DNA from: Salinibacter ruber DSM 13855
GTDB lineage: Bacteria > Bacteroidota > Rhodothermia > Rhodothermales > Salinibacteraceae
Assembly (NCBI RefSeq): GCF_000013045.1
Contig: NC_007677.1
Span: 3,096,203-3,160,202, forward strand
Length of the DNA: 64,000 nucleotides
Direction: 5' to 3'
Part shown: positions 17,786 through 31,226 of the stretch, in pieces
How the letters are laid out: each line of letters begins with the position of its first letter
How positions within the stretch are numbered: the stretch's first letter is position 1
The notes under the pieces: generated by a model
What the model saw: only the letters and a program-made list of their open reading frames with translations
Databases searched by the model: none
Told to the model about the DNA's origin: nothing
Made by a program: the position numbers and the translations under genes

Positions 17786-18103
17786 TTACGGGTCGATCGG
17801 GCCGGGGCTCTCTCCGGAGGAGGACACGAGAAGGGCCACGCCCCGGCTGAACAGTTGCCCAGCAAGGCCCAGGGCAACCCCGAGCCCCATGCCAAAGATG
17901 GCGAGCTCCTTCACGCCCAGGTATTTGCTGACGCTGATGAAGCCCATCCAGGAGAGCGCGCGCTGAACGATGCCGGTCTGGTCGGAGACCACGAAGAGAA
18001 CGGCCCCGAACACGAACCCGAAGAAGGCGGATCGAACCAGGTCCTCGACCAGCAGGCCGCCAACCAATGGGGAAGAAATCGTCTCGTCTTCGCTCTGGCT
18101 CAT
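17786..18103 (-). CDS. Hypothetical small membrane protein
   Basis: 105 aa with two hydrophobic segments. Composition (K, F, I, Y present) fits a real gene rather than GC noise. ATG at 18103. Confidence 0.45.
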   Translation of the reverse strand: MSQSEDETISSPLVGGLLVEDLVRSAFFGFVFGAVLFVVSDQTGIVQRALSWMGFISVSKYLGVKELAIFGMGLGVALGLAGQLFSRGVALLVSSSGESPGPIDP

Positions 18104-18768
18104 AAGGATGAACGCTCAAACACAGAAAGGGCCCGCCCTGAAAAGCGAGGCGGGACCGGCTCGTGGGGCTATTTCCGGCCGCTTTGCAGTCGCGTGAGTG
18201 CGCAGCCGTTGCTCCGCGATCCTTCAGAACGCCACACAGGCTCGTAGGACGCGGTAACTCGCTTTTTAGAGAACCAACAAAGAACGTGGGAGGTCCGGAG
18301 AGTGGGCCCTGACGCCTCCCCTGAAGGTCAAAATAAAATCGAAATCCAATGGGTCGTCCCCAGATGGCCCGGGGCCGTACGGCGGAGAACCGGGGTCCGT
18401 GTCGCCCTGAGTGTCGTGCGGGACCCGTCCGGGCGGACGAACGGCCTCGCCATTTTTTGGGATTCGGGCCGGGCGTACGACGACCGGACGTTCTCGGGGG
18501 AGTCTCTTCGCTTTCGTGAGAAGGCCGGCCCCATCCCCCGATCACTGAACCACTTCGTGCCGGTGGGGACCTAGCCTCGGTGGGCCCGAGCACCAGTCTT
18601 CCGTCCGTCTGGGAGGTCTTCGCGCGAAGGGGGCCTGCCCCACGACGGCGGAAGGGTGTCGCGATCGCGTTACAATGCAGAGGAAGCGGGAACGACCCGG
18701 GTGGGCAAGGGGAACCAGCACTCGTGGTTTGGCCCAATTCTTACACTTCTTCAAACGCTTTGCCTGCT

Positions 18769-19251
18769 ATGGACGAACGCGAACTTGTTGAGACACGGGT
18801 CCGAGACGTGCTGCGAACGAAGGGCACCCTCCAGCAGAACGGGGATGTCCTCACGGCCACCCCCACCGACACCGTTTACGAGTGTATCGACGCCATGGTG
18901 GACCGCGGCATCGGGTCCATCGTCATCACGGAGGACGACGAGATGGTCGGCATCTTCACCGAGCGGGACTACATGCGCGACATTGCCTTGAAGGGACGCT
19001 CCTCCCCGGAGACCGAGGTGCAGGAAGTCATGACGGAAGACGTCGTCACCGCAGAGGCGGAGGACCAGCTCCGCGATTGCCTGGATCGGATGAACGACCT
19101 GCAGTGCCGCCACCTTCCCGTGGTCGACGACGAGGGCAACCTCGCCGACATCATCTCGATGCGGGACTGCGCGAAGCAAGTCGCCGAGTCGGCGGAGTCG
19201 GGCGCGACGCAGCTCGTGAACTACGTGACGGGCCAGTATTCCACCCGGTAG
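18769..19251 (+). CDS. CBS-domain pair protein
   Basis: Two CBS motifs (VYECIDAMVDRGIGSIVITEDDEMVGIFTERD; CLDRMNDLQCRHLPVVDDEGNLADIISMRD). ATG at 18769 (MDERELV); the long upstream reading frame is not convincing coding. Confidence 0.8.
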   Translation: MDERELVETRVRDVLRTKGTLQQNGDVLTATPTDTVYECIDAMVDRGIGSIVITEDDEMVGIFTERDYMRDIALKGRSSPETEVQEVMTEDVVTAEAEDQLRDCLDRMNDLQCRHLPVVDDEGNLADIISMRDCAKQVAESAESGATQLVNYVTGQYSTR

Positions 19252-19693
19252 GAGAGCGGATGCTCGCCGAGGGCAGGCGCCGGTTGTGGGATTCGACGGG
19301 CCGGAATGCGCCGCGCCGGACGGACCGTACGCTTGAGCTGAGGGCACGGCTTCTGGAGCCGCTCGCGCAGGCGGCTGTCCCCGAAAGAGCGGAGACGGCG
19401 CCTCAATCGTCCGCGAGAACCCGCGGACCCGCTGAGCCCCAGATCGATCGGGGAGAGTACATCCCGTAGTGCCCCCTGCTCGCAGCGGCATGGAGTTCGG
19501 CCGATCCAGCCTCTCCCCGGCACGGACGCAACACGACGCGACGTGGAGGCGAGAAACGTCCCTTCCGGGCGTCCTCGCCTCGGAACCCTCGTCCACCTCC
19601 CGTGATGCAATGTGTAACGTTGTAGTCTGAAGACGGCCCCGACACCTCTTTTCAATCTACGGCCGTCGGTTTCCGCCGCTCTCGGGATCTGCC

Positions 19694-22573
19694 ATGCCTT
19701 CTCCCGCCCGCAACATCACCGCCCTTCTCTGGCCGAGCGACGACATGCTCTCCACCAATGCTAAGTCTCGGCTGCAGGTGGTTCGTCTGCTCTGCCTCCT
19801 CGGGAGCCTCCTGATCCCACTTTACGGCCTCCTGTACGAGGCCGCGCGCCCCGAGGCAACCGATCCGATGTGGATCCGGCTCGTCATTGCGGGCGTCTTG
19901 GGGGCGTTCGTGGCGGGCACATACGTTCTGCGAACGCTTCGCACCCACTGCGTCGGCGTCGCGTGGGGACTGCTTTACCTTTTGATGGCCTGGAGTGTGG
20001 CCCTGGCGGCGGTCAATCAGTTTTCGGGCGCGTACGTGGTAGGCATGCTCGTCGTGTACGCTGTCTCCGCCACCCTGGTGTTGGTCAGCAGTCAATTGCT
20101 GCGGTCCGTGCTGTCGTTTTTGTCGGCGGGCCTGCTCCTCACGGGGGCTGCACTGCTGTGGGCCCCTGCCGTTCAGCTGAGCCCCCTGGTGCTGTGCGGG
20201 GGCATGGCCATGGTGGCCTTCGTCGTCGGGGTGGTCGCGCGGTGGGTCTTGCGCGTGCGGAGGCACCTCGCGGACCAGGCACGGGAGCTCGAGGAGCAGC
20301 GCGACCGGCTGGAGGGCCATCGGGCGTACACCAACCGCCTCCTCAACGCGACCGACGACCTGTTCTTTGCCCTCGACCCGACAGGCCAGTTTCAATGGTG
20401 GAACGACCGCGTGTTGGAGACGACCGGCCTGTCCGACGAGGACGTCGGAAGCGTGGACGCGCTGGACCATTTTGTGCCGGCCGAGCGGGAGAAGCAGGCC
20501 AAGCAAGCCATCCGCAGGGTGCTTCAAACCGGCAGCGGCCAGGTGGAAGTGCCCCTCGTGGCCGACGACGGAGTGGCGGTGCCCTACGAGTTCGTGGGCA
20601 ACCCCGTCGAAAACCTGGAGGGGGAGCGCCAGATCGTGTGTGTCGGCCGGAACGTTGCCGAGCGGAAGCGCCGGGAGCGGGAGCTGCGGGAGAGCGAACG
20701 GCGCTTCCAGGCGATGCTGAACGACCCGAACATCCTCGCCGGCGTGCTCTCGCCGGACGGGACGTTCCAGAAGGTCAACGACACGGCCCTCGGGTACATC
20801 GAGGCGACCCGGGCGGACGTTCTCGGCCGGCCGTTCTGGGAGACCCCCTGGTGGGAAACGGAAAACAGGTCGGCGGTCCGAGAGAAGGTCGAGCGCGTGG
20901 CGGAGGGGGAATACGTGCGGTTCGAGGCCGAGCACGTGACCCCGGACGGGGAAGCCCGGACCGTGACCGGCATCATGCGTCCGGTGACCGGCGAGGAGGG
21001 GGAGGTCGTCTCGATTTTTGTCACGGCCCGGGACATCACCGAGCGGAAACGGCGGGAGGAGGCCCTTCAGGTGGCGGAGGGGCGGTACCGAGCGCTTATC
21101 GAGAACTTTCCCGGGGGCGTTTTTCTCTTCGACGAGGATTTGCAGTATACACTGGCAGGGGGACGCGAACTCCGGGACGCGGGCCTCTCCCCGTCGGACG
21201 TGGAAGGGGGAGGTCCGCACGACATATTTCCGGCCGCCCTGGCCGAGGAGCTCGACATGTACTTCCGGCGCGCACTCAACGGCGAGAAGAATGCGTTCGA
21301 GCAGACGATGGACGGGCGCCGGTACTTCAACCGAACGCTCCCGGTTCGGGACGAGTCCGGAACAGTTATCGCCGGCATGGCAGTCGCCCAGGATATCACC
21401 GAGGAGCGCCGCCGCAAGGAAAAGCTCGAGCGGAAGAACGATCTCTTCCAACGGGCCCAGGAGATCGCCAATGTCGGCGGGTGGGAGTACGACCTAGACA
21501 CGGGCGCCCTCACCCTCACCGACCAGGCCTACCGCATCCACGGCGTTTCTCCGGGCGCGAAGATGACGCTGGAGCGGAGCCACGGGCTGTATCACCCCAA
21601 TGACCGATGGGAGGCCGAAGAGGCCTTCCGCCGGGCGGCCGAGGACGGGGTACCCTACGACGTCGAGGCCCGCCTGATTACCGACGCTGGGGAGGAGAAG
21701 TGGATCCGCACCCGCGGGGCGCCGCAACAGGACGACGGCCGGACGGTTCGGGTCCGTGGAACGATCCAGGACATCACCGACCAGAAGGAGCGAGAGCAGG
21801 CCCTCCGCACAGCCAAGGCCGACGCGGAGGCGGCCCGCCAGGAGGCCGAGGAGGCCAGCCGCCTCAAAAGCGCCTTCCTCGCTAACATCAGCCACGAGAT
21901 TCGCACCCCGCTGACGTCGATTATCGGCTTTGCCGAGCTGATCGGCTCGGAGGCCGGCGCGTTGGATCTGTCGGACAGCCCGCTCCCGGGGTATGCCACC
22001 ATGATCGAGCGAAGCGGGAAGCGCCTGCTCGAAACGCTGGAGGGGGTGCTCAACCTCTCCAAGTTGCAGTCCGGGCAGATGAAGCTGGAAACGGCCCCGG
22101 TCGACCTGAACGAGCAAATCCGCTGGGCCGTTCAGGAGCTCCGCCCGAAGGCTGAGGAGAAGGGGGTTCGCCTTCAGCTCGAGACCGGTTGCGCCGTGGC
22201 GGAGGGCGACGAAGGCGGCATCCAGATCGTCATTCGGAACCTGGTCTCCAATGCGATCAAGTACACCGAGCAGGGCGGCCGCATCTGGGTCCGGTCGTTT
22301 CAGAACGAGGACCGGGCCGTGCTTGAAGTTGAGGACACCGGCATTGGGATGGACCCGGCGGTGGCCGAGTCGCTCTTCGAGCCGTTCCGACAGGCGTCGG
22401 AAGGGCTAAATCGCGAGTACGAGGGGACCGGCGTCGGCCTGGCGGTCACGAACAAGGCGGTTGCCCAGATGGACGGATCCATCGAGGTAGACACCGAGAA
22501 AGGCGAGGGCACCCGGTTTACCATCCATCTTCCGGCCTCGGAGGAGCATCCGACCGATGGATCCGCCTCGTGA
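19694..22573 (+). CDS. Multi-sensor signal transduction histidine kinase (7TM-like membrane domain + several PAS/PAC domains + HisKA + HATPase_c)
   Basis: N-terminal polytopic membrane region, at least four PAS-like modules, H-box LANISHEIRTPLTSIIGFAEL, and N/G boxes (VSNAIKYT, IEVEDTGIGM, GTGVGLAV). Confidence 0.9.
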   Translation: MPSPARNITALLWPSDDMLSTNAKSRLQVVRLLCLLGSLLIPLYGLLYEAARPEATDPMWIRLVIAGVLGAFVAGTYVLRTLRTHCVGVAWGLLYLLMAWSVALAAVNQFSGAYVVGMLVVYAVSATLVLVSSQLLRSVLSFLSAGLLLTGAALLWAPAVQLSPLVLCGGMAMVAFVVGVVARWVLRVRRHLADQARELEEQRDRLEGHRAYTNRLLNATDDLFFALDPTGQFQWWNDRVLETTGLSDEDVGSVDALDHFVPAEREKQAKQAIRRVLQTGSGQVEVPLVADDGVAVPYEFVGNPVENLEGERQIVCVGRNVAERKRRERELRESERRFQAMLNDPNILAGVLSPDGTFQKVNDTALGYIEATRADVLGRPFWETPWWETENRSAVREKVERVAEGEYVRFEAEHVTPDGEARTVTGIMRPVTGEEGEVVSIFVTARDITERKRREEALQVAEGRYRALIENFPGGVFLFDEDLQYTLAGGRELRDAGLSPSDVEGGGPHDIFPAALAEELDMYFRRALNGEKNAFEQTMDGRRYFNRTLPVRDESGTVIAGMAVAQDITEERRRKEKLERKNDLFQRAQEIANVGGWEYDLDTGALTLTDQAYRIHGVSPGAKMTLERSHGLYHPNDRWEAEEAFRRAAEDGVPYDVEARLITDAGEEKWIRTRGAPQQDDGRTVRVRGTIQDITDQKEREQALRTAKADAEAARQEAEEASRLKSAFLANISHEIRTPLTSIIGFAELIGSEAGALDLSDSPLPGYATMIERSGKRLLETLEGVLNLSKLQSGQMKLETAPVDLNEQIRWAVQELRPKAEEKGVRLQLETGCAVAEGDEGGIQIVIRNLVSNAIKYTEQGGRIWVRSFQNEDRAVLEVEDTGIGMDPAVAESLFEPFRQASEGLNREYEGTGVGLAVTNKAVAQMDGSIEVDTEKGEGTRFTIHLPASEEHPTDGSAS
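20660..21040. repeat. Left copy of a ~380-bp inverted repeat (about 99% identical) inside the PAS region of the first histidine kinase
   Basis: By eye, its reverse complement matches 26490-26870 with only about three mismatches, all synonymous. Encodes RRERELRESERRFQAML...VTARDITERKR. Confidence 0.85.
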
Positions 22574-22832
22574 AGACGGATGCGACGAAACGAGGCGGGG
22601 CCACACGGAGACCCGCTGTCTCTTGAGTGTCTCTCATTTCTCCCTCGCCAGGGGCCGCGCTGCCGCCCCCACGAGGGTCGTGCGTCATTCAGCCCCCGAA
22701 GTCGCCTTTGGTCAGTAGAGGCATGTACGACATCCCACGCGGCTTCCGGCGTCTCTCCCCGAATGTGCACCCGAACGGACCGCGGGCGTCCAGGTGCACC
22801 ACAGGCCGGCACCGCAGTTCTGCTCCGACCAC

Positions 22833-22876
22833 CGGTGCCGCCCCCCGCTCTCTTCCGTCGAGAGGCGGCACCGCCT
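22833..22876. terminator. GC-rich stem-loop between the convergent histidine-kinase and Htr genes (possible bidirectional terminator)
   Basis: ggtgccgcc...ggcggcacc gives a 9-bp perfect stem with an internally structured loop. No clear U-tract, so the function is uncertain. Confidence 0.3.
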
Positions 22877-22943
22877 TGTCTCGGGCGTCCTCGGGGCGAC
22901 AACGGATCCGGACGGACAGACGCGAGCGGCGTCCTTCTGCGTC

Positions 22944-24499
22944 CTATGCCCCGAGCTCCGGCGCCTCCCGTCGGCCGGCCGCGCCGTCCCCGGTCGTGCT
23001 CTCGAACCCCCCTTCCGTGCCGTTGGCGGGCGCTTTCGGGCCGTCCGCACGGCCGTTGGCGTCCCGACTGCCAACGTGGAACTCGTCGACCAGCCCGCGG
23101 AGGCTGCCCGTCAGCTCCTCCAGCTCCGTGGCCGCCTGCACGACCTCTTCGATGCCCTGCGCTGACTCGTCGGACACCTCGGAAATCGACTGCACGCTTT
23201 CGGAAATCTGGTCCCCGGTCGCCGCCTGCTCTTCGGTCGCGGTGGCGATGCTGTCGACCCGGTCGGTAATGCCCCCGGTGCTGTCCACAATCTCTTCGAA
23301 GGCATCGGCCGCCTGCCCGGCCAATTCAATTCCGGCCTCCACCTCGCTTTGTCCCTGCTCGATGGCGCCGACCGCCTCGCTGGTGTCCTCCTGAACGGAG
23401 GAGACCATCTGCTCGATCTCGTCGGTGGCCTTCGACGTCCGCTCGGCCAGCTCGCGGACCTCCTCGGCCACGACGGCAAATCCCTGTCCCGTCTTTCCGG
23501 AGCCGTCGCCCCCCGCGCGGGCCGCCTCGATGGCCGCGTTTAGGGCGAGAAGGTTCGTCTGATCGGCAATCTCGTCGATCGTCGCCACGATCTTGCCAAT
23601 CTCCTCGCTCGATTCCTTCAGTCCACTAACGGTCCGGGCGGAACGCTTCACGACGTCCCCGATCTCCCGCATCTTGTCGACGGCCTTCAGCACCACGTCT
23701 CCATTCTCCTCGGCCAGCTCCCCATTCTTCCGGGCGGCCTTGGCCGTCTCGGTCGCGTTCTCCGCGTTGTCGTCGATCGTGCGGGCCATCTGCTCCATGG
23801 CGGCGGCAACCTCGTCGGCCTGCTGGGCCTGCTTCTGCACCCCGGCGTTCAGCTGATCGGCCGAGCTTGCGAGCTGGTTGGCGACCGCGTCGGTCTTCTC
23901 GACCGCTTCAGACAAGCGGTGAAAGACCTGCTGAATGTTCTGGACGGACTGGTTGAACTTGCCCTGCAGACGCCCGATTTCTTCGGCCTGCGAGGCATCC
24001 ATCTTGGACGCAAGGTCCCGGCCCTCCGTCTCGGCGTCAACTTGGACCGTCAGGTCTCCCCTGACGAAGCGGTCCATGGCCCCGACCATCCGGTCCACTT
24101 CTTCGGAGAGGGCCTCCTTCTCTTTCTCCCGCTTGTTGGCGAGGGACTCCGCCTCGCGCTTCGTCTCCTCGGCCTCGGCCTTTCGCTCCTCAACCTCCTC
24201 AATACGGGTGAGGAGGGACTGGCGAAGGTCGTCGACGGCCCGGTACACGTCGCCGAACTCGTCGCCGCGGCCGGTGCGGATGGACTTGTCGAGGTTGCCC
24301 TCCGCGAGCTTCGAGGTGACGTAGCGCAGGTCCGTGAGGGCCGTAATGGTGATCGTTCCCGTGATGGACCCGATCGTGAGGAACCCGACGAACGTCGCCA
24401 GCCCGCTGGCGAGGGGGCTCTCTGTGACTAAGACCGTTGTCACGATCATGACGCCAGTCAGCAAATACCAGAAGACGTACTTCGTCAGAAAGCGTTTCA
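22944..24499 (-). CDS. Sensory-rhodopsin transducer (Htr-like methyl-accepting chemotaxis protein)
   Basis: Two N-terminal TM helices, a HAMP-like region, and a highly conserved MCP signalling domain ([38 protein letters not shown]). ATG at 24499 ([10 protein letters not shown]). Directly downstream of the rhodopsin gene. Confidence 0.85.
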
Positions 24500-24556
24500 T
24501 GGGAAAGTAGGGTGTTGGGAGCCAAACAGTGAGGAGAAAAGAAGCAGGGGCGGCGC

Positions 24557-25276
24557 TTAGGCGGCAGACGTGACTGTCGCTGCCCCCCCCTGCCCAGAAG
24601 CGGTCTCGGGCTCTCCGCCGGTCACCTTGACAAAGTTCTTGCGCGCCCGGTAGATGAAGTAGACAAACGGCACCTTCGCGGTCACGTCCAGGTAGCTGAT
24701 GATCACCGCGATTCCCGCCGCGTCGACCCACTGCAGGCCCGGCCCGAAGAGCCACACCAGCGGGTAGGCGAGCCAGAGCAGCCCGACGTAGTTCAGCAGG
24801 AGCCGCGCGAGCCGCCGGTGGGAGGGCGGCTCTCCGAACGCCGAGTTGCGCACCGGCCCGTAGAGGAGCGCGAGGAGGGTCAGGTGGCAGGCCGAGGACA
24901 GCCCGAAGAACACCCACTGGGCCGTGGACGAAAACACGACGGCCCCCAGGCCGAACACGATCATCATGAAGTCGGCCAGGGCGGTGCCCGCGATCATGCC
25001 CCGGCTGGCCCCGGCGATGTACGCGGTGTACCCCACGAGAAGGGGCGTGGTGAGGGCCCAATCAATATACCGGGGGATGGGCACATGATACCCCTGAAAC
25101 TGCACCGACCCGACGTCGAACGTCATGAGCAGGTACATGAACGCGGCAATTCCGGGAATGGCCCAGACGTAGTCGAAGTCGAGTCCCACCTCGTCGCCGA
25201 CCAGCGACAGTGCAGGGGGAATCCCAACGAGCATTCCAAGGGTTCCGATGATGTAGACGATCGTAATCGGGTCCAT
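24557..25276 (-). CDS. Sensory rhodopsin (microbial type-1 rhodopsin, SRI-like)
   Basis: Seven TM helices. The helix-C motif [12 protein letters not shown] matches bacteriorhodopsin's RYADWLFTTPLL, and helix G carries the retinal-binding lysine (DVTAKVPF). Adjacent to the Htr transducer, which indicates a sensory rather than pumping role. Confidence 0.9.
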
Positions 25277-25326
25277 GGGGGTGTGTATCTCTGAATCCAG
25301 ACAGAACGTTTGGGGCTCCCTTCCGA

Positions 25327-25349
25327 GAGAGAAGCTTCTCTCCGGAGAG
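25327..25349. promoter_or_regulatory. Overlapping perfect palindromes (GAGAGAAGCTTCTCTC and CTCTCCGGAGAG) in the sensory-rhodopsin 5' leader
   Basis: Read directly from the sequence: a 16-bp perfect palindrome centred on AAGCTT shares its CTCTC arm with a 12-bp palindrome centred on CCGG. They lie about 50-70 bp upstream of the rhodopsin start codon, on the transcribed side. Confidence 0.4.
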
Positions 25350-25439
25350 CGTTTTTCAGCAAGGCATTCCTCCAGCAGGGTTGAGGAGAGGCCCGCAGAC
25401 CGCTCTTCTCTTCCGTGGGACTGTCGCTGGCCTCCGCGA

Positions 25440-25545
25440 TAAATCCTTGCATCCTTCCTTTCTATTTTATCGGTCCTGATGTCTGACTTTTAAGCCAGAT
25501 GTGCTCTATTTATTTCTTTGTATTGATCACAAAAAAGCGGGGTAC
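25440..25545 (-). promoter_or_regulatory. AT-rich island, putative promoter region of the rhodopsin-Htr operon
   Basis: A roughly 100-bp stretch at about 35% GC in a 66% GC background, about 170-270 bp upstream of the rhodopsin start. No confident -35/-10 assignment. Confidence 0.35.
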
Positions 25546-25670
25546 TCTGCGCACCGAGCCGGTGCTGAATTCGGTTTTCCGGGCAGACATGCCGGGCGGG
25601 CCCCGCACGGGACGACGATCAGTGGGATGATTCCGAAGGACACCACGGGCGGGTCTTCGGAACGCCCCAC

Positions 25671-27938
25671 TCATCCACCGACTCGGTCGGACCGGCCCGT
25701 TTTCTTCTCGTTCGGGTCCGTTGCTGAACGCTTGGCCTTCCGGTCCGCCGCCGGAAGCCGGGCGGTGAACGTGCTGCCCTGCCCCTTTTCCGTCTCCACG
25801 TCGATGGATCCCCCCATCTGCTCGGTCGCCTTCTTCGTCACCGCCAGCCCGATGCCAGTGCCCTCGTACTCGCGAGACAGCCCCTCGGACCCCTGCCGGA
25901 ACGGCTCGAAGAGCGACTCGGCCACCGCCGGGTCCATCCCAATGCCGGTGTCCTCGATTTGCAGCACCGCCTCCCCGTCTTCTCGGTACGTCCGCACCTG
26001 CACCGTCCCTTCCTCCGTGTACTTAATCGCGTTGGACAGGAGGTTCTGGAGTACGATCTGGAGCCCCCCCTCATCGGCCCAGGCGCCAGCCTCTTCGGCC
26101 TCGACCTCAAGCGCAAGGCCGCTGTCGTCCGCCTCCGCCGCAAACTCCCGGGCGACCTGCCGAGCCTGACCCGCCAAATCGATGGGGCGGGACTCCAAGG
26201 TCATCTGTCCGGCCTCCAGCTTTGAGAGGTTGAGCACCGCATCCAGGGTGTCCAGCAGCCGCCGGCCACTGTCTTCAATCAGGTCCGCGAAATGAGCGAC
26301 GCCGCCGTCCCCGTCGATCTCGTCCCCGATCGCCTCGGCGAACCCAATGATTCCGGTCAGCGGCGTGCGAATCTCGTGACTCATGTTCGCGAGCATGGCG
26401 GACTTCATGCGGCTGGCCTCTTCGGCCTCCAGCTTTGAGAGCTCGGCCTGCTCCTTCGCCTGTTTGAGCCGCCGCGCCTTCCGCTTCCGTTCGGTGATGT
26501 CCCGGGCCGTGACAAAAATCGAGACGACCTCCCCCTCCTCGCCGGTCACCGGACGCATGATGCCGGTCACGGTCCGGGCCTCCCCGTCCGGGGTCACGTG
26601 CTCGGCCTCGAACCGCACGTATTCCCCCTCCGCCACGCGCTCGACCTTCTCTCGGACCGCCGACCTGTTTTCCGTTTCCCACCAGGGGGTTTCCCAGAAC
26701 GGCCGGCCGAGAACGTCCGCCCGGGTCGCCTCGATGTACCCGAGGGCCGTGTCGTTGACCTTCTGGAACGTCCCGTCCGGCGAGAGCACGCCGGCGAGGA
26801 TGTTCGGGTCGTTCAGCATCGCCTGGAAGCGCCGTTCGCTCTCCCGCAGCTCCCGCTCCCGACGCTTCTGTTCGGTGATGTCCGACAGGACGACCGTCTG
26901 GGTGTCCATGCCCTGTCCCAGGCTTGTCTGGATCACCCGAAAGTACCGGCAGTGCTCCGCTGGGTGCACGCTGGCGTCGGACTGCTTGGGGGTAGTCATC
27001 GCCCGTTCCTCCTGGCACTCCTGCGCCTCCCCCTTCTCGAACCCAGCCCGCCACGCCGGCTCCCCACGGCGAATCGTCTCCCCGAGTCCGGGCAATGCCT
27101 CCGTCAGCGGCCGCCCCAGGTCCTCCTCGCTCAGCGGGGGAATGATCTCCTTAATCCCCCCGCCGAGCCCCCGAATCCGCCCCTCCCGCCCGATCGTCAG
27201 GTTCGGCTCCTCGACGCTCCCGGTCAGCTGCACGACGCTGAACTGCGTCTCGTAGGCGAACAGCAGCCCCACCGCAAACACCGCCACCCCCAGCGGCTCG
27301 TGGGTGATGTCCAAGAGCGCCGGCTGGACGTGCCCGATCACGTTGAAGACCGCCGGCAGGGCCGTGAGCCCCGTCAGCACCCCTAGCGGGAGCACCTTCG
27401 CCTCCGCCTCGAGAAGAAACTCAAAGATCATCAGGTAGCCGGCTGCCGACAGGGCGTAGGCCACGGCCATTACGACCCAGTAGAGCGTCTCGTGGGTCAC
27501 GACCAGGCCGAAGGCGCCCCCCGCCGGCTCCAGCCCGTAGTAGAGGCCGTGCAGCGGGTTGGTCACCTTCAGGGCGGTCACGATCACGTACACGGCGATC
27601 GCAAACTGTTGGACCCTTCGGTTGCGGTGGAGGCCCCGCCCGCTGTAGGCAGAGCAAAACCAGAGCCAGGCGAAGACGGTGCCGAAGCCCACGATCAGGC
27701 TCAGCTGGTAGAAGAGGTGCTTCTCGAGGGCCGATCCGACGAGCAGAAAGCCCACGTAGGCCCCGGCCCAGACGGCACTTCCGGAAAAGAACCACGTCAG
27801 GGCCTGCCGGGTCTCCGGCGACGGAACCGACCGGGCCCGCCAGGCGGCCCCCAGACAGGCAGCGGTCGCGGCGACGAAAGCAAGAAGATAACCGGTGTAG
27901 GTCAGGGGCGTGGATGCCTCAATCAGGCTTCCGATCAT
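25671..27938 (-). CDS. Multi-sensor histidine kinase (polytopic membrane sensor domain + PAS + HisKA + HATPase_c)
   Basis: H-box LANMSHEIRTPLTGIIGFAE, N/G boxes, and one PAS module identical to one in the first kinase. The N-terminal membrane domain differs from that of the first kinase. ATG at 27938; the ORF track's 27956 start is a TTG. Confidence 0.9.
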   Translation of the reverse strand: MIGSLIEASTPLTYTGYLLAFVAATAACLGAAWRARSVPSPETRQALTWFFSGSAVWAGAYVGFLLVGSALEKHLFYQLSLIVGFGTVFAWLWFCSAYSGRGLHRNRRVQQFAIAVYVIVTALKVTNPLHGLYYGLEPAGGAFGLVVTHETLYWVVMAVAYALSAAGYLMIFEFLLEAEAKVLPLGVLTGLTALPAVFNVIGHVQPALLDITHEPLGVAVFAVGLLFAYETQFSVVQLTGSVEEPNLTIGREGRIRGLGGGIKEIIPPLSEEDLGRPLTEALPGLGETIRRGEPAWRAGFEKGEAQECQEERAMTTPKQSDASVHPAEHCRYFRVIQTSLGQGMDTQTVVLSDITEQKRRERELRESERRFQAMLNDPNILAGVLSPDGTFQKVNDTALGYIEATRADVLGRPFWETPWWETENRSAVREKVERVAEGEYVRFEAEHVTPDGEARTVTGIMRPVTGEEGEVVSIFVTARDITERKRKARRLKQAKEQAELSKLEAEEASRMKSAMLANMSHEIRTPLTGIIGFAEAIGDEIDGDGGVAHFADLIEDSGRRLLDTLDAVLNLSKLEAGQMTLESRPIDLAGQARQVAREFAAEADDSGLALEVEAEEAGAWADEGGLQIVLQNLLSNAIKYTEEGTVQVRTYREDGEAVLQIEDTGIGMDPAVAESLFEPFRQGSEGLSREYEGTGIGLAVTKKATEQMGGSIDVETEKGQGSTFTARLPAADRKAKRSATDPNEKKTGRSDRVGG
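26490..26870. repeat. Right copy of the ~380-bp inverted repeat (inside the second histidine kinase)
   Basis: Reverse complement of 20660-21040 at about 99% identity. The 130-aa antisense read-through peptides are identical in both ORF-track entries (20584..21039 and 26383..27255). Confidence 0.85.
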
Positions 27939-28571
27939 GGGCGGGTCGTTGTGCAAAAAAGCTCGCTACAGCACAGCATCCACTCTAATGGAGCAAGAAA
28001 GGGACCGTGTATACTCCATCTCTTGATCCGTATCGGACTCGTCAAACTCGACATGGGTCGTCACAGCCCCCGTCAAATTTCCTCCTTCGGTGGTCCTCGT
28101 ATCGGCCGGCCGGCGCGACGAACGGGCCTTTCACAGCTACCAGCCCCCGGTAATTTTACAGCGTAGGCGCTACGACACCGGGCCGCGCCCCCCCACTCCA
28201 GCGGGCCTCCAGTGCCCGTTCGGGCCCGGCATCGTTTTTTCTGTATTGAACCGCGCCCGCCCAGCATTGCGCGGTGGCCGTTTTCTCCCTCCCGTCGTGG
28301 CCCTTCCTCGACGATCGGTGCTGGGGCACGGTCGTGAGATGTCCGCGCGGCACAGCTCACCCCGGCGGATGTGGGACATAGTGTATTTTTAAAATCTACG
28401 CCTTTAATGCCTCGCCGGTCGGGCCGATGATTATAATCCAACGGACGAGAAGCCCCCCTGGGCGTGGCCGTACGGGGCCCATCTCCTCGGCTACCGCACG
28501 GCCGGCACGAGCGACCGCATCATCTGGTGCCGCACGACGCACCTGACCTCCGACTTTTCTCTCTGCTTTGC

Positions 28572-30338
28572 ATGGACGGCGAGACGCTTCCTGTCGACGA
28601 ACACGGCCACGTTCGGGTCGCCCGCCTACTGTGTCTGCTGGGGGCCGTCCTGGTATCCCTGTACGTCCCCCTGTACGGGGCCGGTGCCGACGCCCCAGTC
28701 TCGATGAGCTGGCTTCACTTCGGCGTAGCGGGACTGCTCGTGGCCCTGATCGGCGCCTCGTACATCTCCGACACGGTCCGTCGCCGCCACGTGGCGATCA
28801 CGTGGGGGCTGCTCTACGCCATCATGGGATGGACCGCGGTCCTCGCCGCGCTCAACGAGTTCGCCGGGGGATACGCGGTGGGCGTCCTTCTGGTCTACGC
28901 CGTCTTCGGGGGCGTGGTGGCACTGGGAAGCGCGTCGATGAGACCCGTCTTGACGTTTCTTCTGGCGGGCCTTTTGGCGGTTGGGGGGGCACTGCTGTGG
29001 GCCCCTGTGCTCCAGACGAGTCCCTGGGCGCTGATCGGGGCCATGGGCGTCGTGGCCCTCGTCGAAGGGGCCACCCTCCGGTGGGTTCGGTCGGTGTGTG
29101 CCCGCCTTCGGACCCAGGGGCGAACCCTTCGCGAGCAGCGCGACCTCCTGGACCGTCTCGTGGAGACGAGTCCCCACGCGGTCGTTCGGGTCGACGCGAG
29201 CGGGGCGCCCACCGGTGCAAATGGCCGGGCCGAAGAGATTCTCGGCCCCGATGTGGAAGCGGCGTCCGGCGACTCGGACGGGGCCACCACAGGCGGGTCT
29301 GCCGGAGACGAGGAGACAACGCCCCCCGGCACCCGCCCCCTGTCGCAGGTTCTGCAGGTGAGGCGCGTCGTGCGCAACCTAAAGTGCTCGGTCGAGCGGC
29401 CGGACGGCACCCGGCGCGTGCTTTCGGCCAGCGGCGCGCCGGTGCGGGGGGCCGACGGGACGATTCGCGAGGCCGTCTTTCACCTCGAAGACGTGACCGA
29501 GCAGGAACGTCGGAAGCAGGCCCTCCGGCGGGCCGAAGAGGAGATCGAAGAGGCCGACCGCCTCAAGTCCGCCCTGCTGGCGAACATGAACCACGAAATC
29601 CGCACCCCCTTGACCGCGATCATCGGGTTTGCCGAGGCGATCGGCACGACCGCCAGTGAGATGGACCTGCCCGAGCACACCCCACTGACCGGCTACGCCG
29701 ACCTGATTGAGCAGAGCGGGAAGCGCCTGCTCGACACCTTCGAGGACATACTGGACCTCTCCCAATTGGAGGCGGGCCAGATGGAGCTCGGCATCGAGAC
29801 GGTCGACCTCGCCGAGCAGGCCCGCCGGGCCGTCCAGGAATGCGGGGCCAACGCCCAGGACAAAGAGATCGACGTGCGGCTGGAGGCGACCAGCGTCTCT
29901 GCGCGTGCCAACGAGAACGGGGTCCAGGTCGCGCTGCAGAACCTCCTGGACAACGCGATCAAGTACACGGCGGATGGGGGCACCGTGTGGGTGCGGACCC
30001 GTCCGGAGCCGGGGAGGGCTGTGCTGGAGGTCGAAGACGACGGAGCCGGGATGGAGCCGGAGACGGTCGATCAGCTCTTCGAGCCGTTCCGACAGGCCTC
30101 CACCGGCATGGCACGCGAGTACGAAGGCGCCGGCGTTGGCCTCGCGGTCACGAAGGAGGCGACCGAGCAAATGGGCGGGGCGATTGAGGTGGAGACCGAG
30201 CCGGGGGCAGGCAGCCGGTTCCTCATCCGATTCCCGATGGCGGACCACAGCACTCACGACTGCGGGGACGGCCCCGTTGAGCCTTCCGAGGAGGTCGCCG
30301 ATGCGCATCGGGACCCCCAGACGACCGTGACGAACTGA
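28572..30338 (+). CDS. Sensor histidine kinase (7TM-like membrane domain paralogous to the first kinase + PAS + HisKA + HATPase_c)
   Basis: N-terminal membrane region aligns with the first kinase (RLLCLLGAVLVSLY.../...WGLLYAIMGW...LLWAPVLQ). H-box LANMNHEIRTPLTAIIGFAEA. ATG at 28572; a GTG at 28464 is also possible. Confidence 0.85.
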   Translation: MDGETLPVDEHGHVRVARLLCLLGAVLVSLYVPLYGAGADAPVSMSWLHFGVAGLLVALIGASYISDTVRRRHVAITWGLLYAIMGWTAVLAALNEFAGGYAVGVLLVYAVFGGVVALGSASMRPVLTFLLAGLLAVGGALLWAPVLQTSPWALIGAMGVVALVEGATLRWVRSVCARLRTQGRTLREQRDLLDRLVETSPHAVVRVDASGAPTGANGRAEEILGPDVEAASGDSDGATTGGSAGDEETTPPGTRPLSQVLQVRRVVRNLKCSVERPDGTRRVLSASGAPVRGADGTIREAVFHLEDVTEQERRKQALRRAEEEIEEADRLKSALLANMNHEIRTPLTAIIGFAEAIGTTASEMDLPEHTPLTGYADLIEQSGKRLLDTFEDILDLSQLEAGQMELGIETVDLAEQARRAVQECGANAQDKEIDVRLEATSVSARANENGVQVALQNLLDNAIKYTADGGTVWVRTRPEPGRAVLEVEDDGAGMEPETVDQLFEPFRQASTGMAREYEGAGVGLAVTKEATEQMGGAIEVETEPGAGSRFLIRFPMADHSTHDCGDGPVEPSEEVADAHRDPQTTVTN

Positions 30339-30392: not shown

Positions 30393-31226
30393 ATGAGCAC
30401 ACGCGCCGTGGAGACCGAAGCATTGGAGGCCAAGTTTCCCACGCTCCCCTCTGCGATCGAGGCGGTAGAGGAGTTGATCGCGTCCGGACAGACCGATCCC
30501 GAGAAGCTGATCGCGGTCGTCAAGCAGTGTCCGTCGACGTCCCTCAATGTCCTCCGCCGGGCAAACTCTGCCTACTACGGCCTGCGACACGAAGTTGAAA
30601 GCGTCGAGCAGGCGGTACGCCTTCTCGGCTTCGTCGAGGTGACGTCGATCGTTGTGCTTGAAGGCGCCAACGAGATGCGGGACCAACTCACGAACCACAC
30701 GGGCCTTCTCGACCGCATCATGCACGCCGCCATTTTCACCGGCCGGTTCACCCAACAGCTGACTCGCCAGCTCGACCTGGCGGACGAATGGGCGCGCCCA
30801 GCCTTCTCGGTGGGGCTCCTCCACGTGATGGGCCGCCTCGTGCTTCTGTACTCCGCCCCGGCCCAGTATGCCCCGCTGGCCGATGGACAGGACGACGCTC
30901 TTCCCGAGGTGGGGGATGAACGGCGCCTCTTCGGGGAGGGCCATCGCACCCTCGCCCGCCGCGCCGGCGAACACTGGAACCTCTCCGACCGCATCTGCTC
31001 GGTCCTACACCGCGCCATCGACCTGTCCGGGCCTTCGACGGGCCGACGGTGGACGCTGGCAGTGGCCGTTCGGGCGGGGAGCGCCCTGGCCCAGCGTGAC
31101 CTGAGCAACGCGCCGCTCGCGCTCCCGAAGGGCCTGCCCACCGCCGACGCCTCCCTGCCGGAGGAGCTCGTGGCCGTCGCCGCCGACGACGCGACCGACT
31201 ACGCCGCGAACCTGGGCACCTTTTGA
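30393..31226 (+). CDS. HDOD-domain signalling protein
   Basis: HDOD-like core (LNVLRRANSAYYGLRHEVESVEQAVRLLGFVEVTSIVV). Lies 54 bp downstream of the third kinase and is probably co-transcribed with it. Confidence 0.65.
   Translation: MSTRAVETEALEAKFPTLPSAIEAVEELIASGQTDPEKLIAVVKQCPSTSLNVLRRANSAYYGLRHEVESVEQAVRLLGFVEVTSIVVLEGANEMRDQLTNHTGLLDRIMHAAIFTGRFTQQLTRQLDLADEWARPAFSVGLLHVMGRLVLLYSAPAQYAPLADGQDDALPEVGDERRLFGEGHRTLARRAGEHWNLSDRICSVLHRAIDLSGPSTGRRWTLAVAVRAGSALAQRDLSNAPLALPKGLPTADASLPEELVAVAADDATDYAANLGTF

Follow-up and report, generated by a model that had tools for sequence, protein, structure and literature searches.

The sensory rhodopsin operon of Salinibacter ruber DSM 13855 lies between two histidine kinase genes that share one nearly identical PAS module in inverted orientation, and this raises the question of how the two copies remain so alike and what becomes of the kinases when they recombine. 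We addressed this in a 64-kb stretch of the genome (64,000 nucleotides (nt), 67% G+C; hereafter the window, to which all positions refer). We propose that the module of the second kinase, K2, replaced that of the first, K1, in the stem lineage of S. ruber, that gene conversion between the copies is ongoing, and that an occasional crossover inverts the DNA between them as a by-product of their homology, with no dedicated switch. To this account as a whole we assign a probability of roughly 60%.

K1 (959 amino acids (aa), 19694-22573, forward strand) is an open reading frame (ORF) with a hydrophobic N-terminal region, after which Pfam recognises PAS1, the shared PAS module, three more PAS-type domains to make five in all, HisKA and HATPase_c. 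K2 (755 aa from its ATG, 25671-27938, reverse strand) consists of a HisKA_7TM membrane domain, a linker, the shared module, HisKA and HATPase_c. A repeat search of positions 18000-30000 returned one outstanding inverted pair, 20658-21083 and 26450-26875 (426 nt, 95% identity), and base-by-base comparison places the high-identity block at 20658-21052 (arm A, in K1, forward strand) against 26875-26481 (arm B, in K2, reverse strand), with 7 mismatches in 395 nt (98.2%). Only two mismatches, at 20842 and 20953, fall within the 371-nt arm core 20672-21042, and the longest mismatch-free stretch is 170 nt. Beyond both edges of the block identity drops at once to chance level and the flanks are unrelated. 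The two arms share one codon phase, arm A covering codons 322-453 of K1 and arm B codons 361-492 of the K2 ORF, which has 761 codons, and each corresponds to exactly one PAS module of 127-131 aa between DITERKRRE-type linker motifs, the second PAS of K1 and the sole PAS of K2; the window holds these two copies only.

The original prediction had described the repeat over 20660-21040 with about three mismatches, all of them synonymous; the repeat is real, but that interval contains five mismatches and one of them is non-synonymous. Over the whole block, six of the seven are synonymous third-position transitions, the other being an R to Q change at 20664 on the left edge. Apart from the mismatch count the earlier description is correct. 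The same prediction had called the remainder of the two genes clearly diverged; the N-terminal membrane domains are unrelated, PAS3-5 of K1 have no counterpart in K2, and the catalytic halves are ordinary paralogues (~70-78% identity in nucleotides, ~60% in amino acids). A block of 395 nt cannot have arisen by chance. Neither is the repeat an assembly artefact of the window, because both proteins recur on upwards of 20 independent S. ruber contigs: the K1 protein, which matches ABC43859.1 from the DSM 13855 genome at every residue, is found exactly on at least 23 contigs and the exact K2 protein on 22. In the 7TM domain of K2, strains also differ in a Gly/Pro-rich insert that follows EPAGG and is 5 or 11 residues long (~27507-27530, residues ~137-144), giving forms of 755, 760 and 766 aa.

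The history of the module becomes visible in related species. Salinibacter altiplanensis has the same gene order (a third kinase K3, K2, the sensory rhodopsin SR, its transducer Htr, K1), but no identical inverted repeat, and the module of the window is 82% identical in amino acids to the S. altiplanensis K2-PAS and 61% to its K1-PAS2. When K1 is aligned with its orthologue, identity falls to ~60% in the module only and stays at 75-90% elsewhere, and no such dip is present between K2 and its orthologue. A matrix of modules from several species resolves two types with ~60% amino acid identity between them. All K2 genes have the K2 type. S. altiplanensis, S. grassmerensis and L013, a species more distantly related, have the K1 type in their K1 genes, and K1 of S. 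ruber is the only K1 with a K2-type module. Given both the two-type matrix and the dip confined to K1, the comparison of species shows that, on the stem leading to S. ruber, the K2 module overwrote the diverged paralogue that K1 had carried, so that arm B represents the ancestral donor and arm A, being K2-like in type, the recipient. The original prediction had counted a repeat that is present but diverged in unrearranged relatives as evidence against it. This is indeed the state of the sister species; it dates the homogenisation to S. ruber and does not speak against recombination within that species.

In both module types the first ~34 residues are nearly identical and the C-terminal ARDITERKR is common, and the initial replacement may have been anchored on these conserved module ends. 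The conservation of the first ~34 residues also led us to drop a separate partial conversion tract in K1 of S. grassmerensis. More distant Salinibacter species (L013, L016, L017, L018) have no K2 gene and K3 adjoins the rhodopsin directly, which suggests that K2 is a later insertion in the group of S. ruber, S. altiplanensis and S. grassmerensis; the L013 orthologue of K1 is 706 aa long and lacks PAS3-5. P0006, a protein of 706 aa, matches the chimera of K1 and K2 described below (67% identity, 98% coverage) and was considered as an ancient fixed inversion, a candidate that was rejected because its C-terminal half is K1-type (84% versus 57%) and the species has no K2.

Within S. ruber, both module copies were taken from seven genomes or contigs, the window included and all of them short-read assemblies, and compared over a 378-nt core. 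The numbers of differences between K1 and K2 of the same genome are 3, 4, 1, 0, 0, 12 and 1 (mean 3.0; 0-4 in six of seven), set against ~10 on average between orthologous module copies of different genomes. Permuting the K1-K2 pairings gave a mean as low as that of the true pairing in 3 of 5040 arrangements. Twenty-six sites of the module are polymorphic in both genes, three in K1 only and two in K2 only, and there are no fixed differences. Five substitutions are common to K1 P0004 and K2 P0016-18 of the same clade (on one contig in L023), and two others to K1 P0003 and K2 P0012. Since 24 of the 33 variable codons have synonymous changes only, the identity of the arms does not come from selection at the protein level. 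These comparisons show repeated non-reciprocal homologous recombination, or gene conversion, that keeps the copies near-identical, with tracts that stop at the linker motifs where homology ends. The reading that recombination is ongoing is strongly supported, and the earlier suggestion of recent gene conversion or continuing exchange is thereby upheld, both by the sister species, in which the identity is lacking, and by strain-specific variants that are common to the two S. ruber copies. The exchange would be the work of the cell's general recombination system of the RecA type.

Some of the intermediates of this exchange may occasionally be resolved as crossovers. The arms enclose an interior of 5428 bp (21053-26480) that contains the 3′ half of K1, Htr, SR and the 3′ half of K2. 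A crossover would invert this 5.4-kb interior and produce two in-frame hybrid kinases, the first joining the sensor half of K1 to the catalytic half of K2 (K1N::K2C) and the second joining the 7TM domain and module of K2 to PAS3-5 and the catalytic half of K1 (K2N::K1C). As in tufA/tufB of Salmonella, inversion would be a by-product of homology. Both predicted fusion proteins were built from the window, and a protein search with the K1N::K2C chimera returned two full-length matches of 722 aa, P0001 with 100% and P0002 with 99% identity. The contig that encodes P0002 is 1.6 Mb long, belongs to the isolate assembly GCA_024807415.1 (L011) and crosses both arms, with the gene order CBS, 722-aa kinase K1N::K2C (forward), SR (forward), Htr (forward), 992-aa kinase K2N::K1C (reverse), K3 and HDOD. 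Both fusions of L011 are complete, in-frame hybrid kinases, and alignment with the window gives a clean reversal of 20658-26875, interior included, with collinear flanks and breakpoints inside the arms. P0001 lies on a 4.8-kb metagenome contig (L012) with the same order K1N::K2C-SR-Htr, which covers the first junction only. The geometry of the inversion and its reciprocal in-frame fusions are as the original prediction had drawn them, both fusions in L011 and one junction in L012, each of these being a short-read assembly.

L011 and L012 share 98.6% identity, and neither is a clone of any normal-order locus compared; among the same loci there is no clone-mate of L011 with normal order. A metagenome scan with the rhodopsin found six loci, of which L015 spans both arms in normal order and the others belong to different species without K2. 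The inverted configuration is represented by a single isolate assembly and a single metagenome contig, whereas assemblies that are normal or broken at the repeat number in the dozens. We give the 5.4-kb inversion a chance of about two in three of being genuine, and, if real, it is probably rare.

Several observations weigh against the account proposed here. Assemblers, through bubble-popping and repeat collapse, could exaggerate the identity within genomes; as a counter to this worry, the window, L006 and L022 keep 3-12 differences, and collapse would need to erase 13-20 differences to imitate the clade pattern. L022, with its 12 differences, indicates that homogenisation is not continuous in every lineage, and we only infer the dependence on RecA. 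As regards the inversion, a search with the reciprocal 992-aa chimera returned no further inverted genomes, and the 992-aa product of L011 formed no separate cluster. The arms of L011 are identical over 369 nt and the exchange point could lie anywhere therein. For the isolate collection, Nextera XT libraries were read at 2x150 bp and SPAdes was the assembler (PMC10791622), so that the identical stretch exceeds the 150-nt reads and the orientation of L011 is carried by read pairs only. L012 is a metagenome contig, a kind of assembly in which chimeric joins at repeats are common, and many sister assemblies break exactly at the module. In these, truncated K1 proteins stop between residues 352 and 449 or begin between 402 and 451, and the interior forms stand-alone contigs of 5.4-5.9 kb. 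Contig ends in or at the module recur in many S. ruber drafts (P0008, P0180, P0182, P0185, P0187, P0197-P0201), making it a systematic breakpoint. CP020719 had been considered as a long-read control and was dropped, being a HiSeq 100-bp assembly.

The rival that survives best accepts gene conversion and nothing more: the inversions of L011 and L012 would be short-read misassemblies, and stable inversions would be absent or would not survive in nature. We regard this as possible but doubtful. It draws on the perfect 369-nt identity in L011 that outruns the reads, on the dozens of assemblies from the same collection that left the interior unoriented, and on a tally of inverted loci that amounts to one isolate and one metagenome contig. 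It has to contend, however, with the fact that SPAdes normally leaves such repeats unresolved unless read pairs support a path, as in the broken assemblies, whereas the L011 contig crosses both arms within 1.6 Mb. Two independent data sets also arrive at the same junction, and conversion between inverted repeats is expected to yield crossovers at a comparable rate. The edge alleles of L011, G/G and A/A at 21043/21049, are the exact reciprocal product of the common parental alleles. These single nucleotide polymorphisms (SNPs) were set aside as a discriminator between inversion and misassembly, as they fit a crossover between 21043 and 21049 and equally well a normal order with private SNPs.

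Deletion, too, has affected the locus. In L014 (GCA_024806755.1, 10001-11902), K2 is a protein of 633 aa from which exactly the 127-aa PAS module is missing, in frame. The junction lies in a 23-nt direct repeat, GGACATCACCGAAC(A/G)GAAGCG, that flanks the module; its equivalents in the window are the linker-motif repeats at the 3′ end (26467-26502, reverse strand) and the 5′ end (26848-26883, reverse strand) of the K2 module, 381 nt apart. The deletion is the product of recombination between the linker-motif direct repeats, by which the inverted repeat was lost. Apart from this, K1 is disrupted in some S. ruber strains (P0009, P0190, P0191). One K1 variant is a 597-aa frameshift in which the frame changes at the module end, and one K1 is split into ORFs of 514 aa and 438 aa on a 612,507-bp contig. 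It is possible that strains can do without K1.

A further explanation holds that the locus is a selected, reversible domain-shuffling switch, in which frequent flips would offer two kinase pairs for bet-hedging and the usefulness of the system would keep the arms identical. Both fusions are indeed complete, in-frame kinases, the arms coincide exactly with a domain boundary, and mixed cultures would likewise give frequent contig breaks at the arms. If this were true, the two-component sensors here would be subject to a 'signalling shufflon' that needs no recombinase, with membrane or PAS input halves exchanged between two catalytic outputs. We nevertheless consider it improbable, and the likeness to shufflons and phase variation that had been drawn from the repeat is not supported. 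Pfam gave no recombinase domain, and no invertase or integrase gene, for any called gene up to ~10 kb to the left or right, in a search that was local and did not extend to a distant trans-acting enzyme; unannotated neighbours scanned at E<=0.1 yielded no recombinase. Short specific recombination sites of tens of bp are not seen either, the homology being the whole 395-bp coding module. Furthermore, the inverted form is found in about one of dozens of isolates and the sister species are without the repeat. In one strain the K2 module, and hence the repeat, has been deleted, and others have a broken K1, which argues against strong selection for a two-state system. A single recent conversion or domain swap with no continuing exchange and too little time for divergence, with which the window alone (2-3 core mismatches) is compatible, is very improbable, as strains differ by ~10 module sites and copies within a genome mostly by 0-4, 26 polymorphisms are shared with no fixed difference, and amino acid changes are common to K1 and K2 of the same clade.

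With stem replacement followed by conversion and rare inversion as our preferred account, we turn to the genes that an inversion would carry with it. The claim that a rhodopsin and an Htr gene lie between the arms is confirmed by Pfam, which assigns a bacteriorhodopsin-family protein (Bac_rhodopsin) of 239 aa with Asp72 and His131 (24557-25276, reverse strand) and a transducer of 518 aa with HAMP and MCP signalling domains (22944-24500, reverse strand). SrSRI is characterised by Asp72 and His131 and is followed directly downstream by a 518-residue transducer (PMC3274258). By its sequence features, a 239-aa rhodopsin with these two residues and then a 518-aa HAMP/MCP transducer with two transmembrane segments, the operon between the arms is SrSRI-SrHtrI. 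All rhodopsin relatives found are from Salinibacter, and as the K1 protein is moreover identical to that of DSM 13855, a haloarchaeal origin of the DNA was dropped. In Halobacterium salinarum the order of the genes is htrI-sopI, the reverse of that in S. ruber. The rhodopsin gene stands here upstream of its transducer (24500-24557 between them), in agreement with the published SrSRI/SrHtrI.

Between K2 and SR lie a promoter-like site upstream of SR (25464-25493, reverse strand; TTAAAA-18-TAAAAT), which is weak, with one site against 0.6 expected, and a terminator-like hairpin after the K2 stop (25555-25541), for which the evidence is likewise weak. SR-Htr thus appears to have its own promoter inside the invertible segment. 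Given this site and the hairpin, an inversion would rewire the kinases and leave SR-Htr expression largely unchanged, and its main consequence would fall on the kinases, not on the photoreceptor. Next to K2 lies K3, a third paralogous PAS histidine kinase (588 aa, 28572-30338, forward strand), followed by an HDOD-domain gene (30393-31226, forward strand). Three related orphan kinases are thus grouped around the SrSRI operon, and no response regulator was seen among the called genes within ~10 kb. A 229-aa ORF (22580-23269, forward strand), partly antisense to Htr, has no Pfam match and is uncalled in related assemblies; it is probably a spurious ORF of GC-rich DNA. An Rfam scan of 19000-29000 found no RNA family.

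The closest known parallel is the tufA/tufB pair of Salmonella enterica, inverted paralogues whose concerted evolution depends on RecA and gene conversion and is accompanied by chromosomal inversions (Abdulkarim & Hughes 1996; Hughes 2000; PMC5485169; PMC6735719). Inversion accompanies up to 50% of recombination events between the tuf genes (PMC6735719; PMC5485169). As there, two inverse copies reside on one chromosome, non-reciprocal recombination keeps them near-identical, heterology blocks the tracts, and the same recombination can invert the intervening DNA with no dedicated recombinase. The tuf genes, however, are whole and equivalent, whereas the homology in S. ruber is one 395-bp module in proteins of different architecture, so that a crossover makes new domain combinations. 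The interval also measures 5.4 kb here as opposed to 760 kb, and the evidence in S. ruber is population-genomic, not experimental. On the present sequences, the locus is a case of tufA/tufB-style concerted evolution with probable but rare RecA-type inversions and no demonstrated programmed switch.

Systems of the shufflon, hsdS and mba type recombine at short specific sites by means of their own tyrosine or serine recombinase, which is usually encoded close by, and they flip frequently in clonal cultures. As with the Rci shufflons of IncI plasmids, phase-variable type I hsdS loci and mba/UU172 of Ureaplasma (PMC3047005), inversion in coding repeats would give alternative in-frame chimeras in S. 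ruber, drawn from a fixed set of halves. Unlike them, S. ruber has no nearby recombinase, its homology extends over 395 bp, its inverted state is rare, and the products are cytoplasmic-signalling kinases and not surface or specificity proteins. In the passage-attenuated Senegal strain of Ehrlichia ruminantium, ntrX is described as having undergone gene conversion from an inverted segmental duplication, linked to attenuation of virulence (PMC9937504). The two cases are alike in that an inverted duplicate donates sequence to a two-component gene, and differ in that ntrX concerns one strain, whereas the exchange in S. ruber is recurrent in a natural population and involves two functional kinases and a probable reciprocal inversion. 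The locus also resembles histidine-kinase domain shuffling, as new sensor/catalytic combinations are joined at domain linkers. Such shuffling was reportedly inferred from comparative genomics by Alm et al. in 2006. In contrast to the usual examples, which are ancient and involve distant genes, donor, recipient, junctions and reciprocal products are all visible within S. ruber. Our literature searches brought up no previous account of the repeat, or of its inversion, in S. ruber.

For genome work on the organism, the 395-bp repeat breaks many short-read S. ruber assemblies or may mis-orient them and, if ignored, would bias what is computed for the pangenome and for recombination around SrSRI. 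For the biology, the locus offers a clean natural case of concerted evolution of a single protein domain, in which donor, recipient, tract boundaries and outgroup state are visible. It is also a probable snapshot of histidine-kinase domain shuffling, with a reciprocal half-swap in one strain and, in a different strain, the precise loss of the module. Finally, as S. ruber is a model of bacterial population genomics, the frequency of each orientation, the rate of conversion and the effects on fitness are all measurable in this species.

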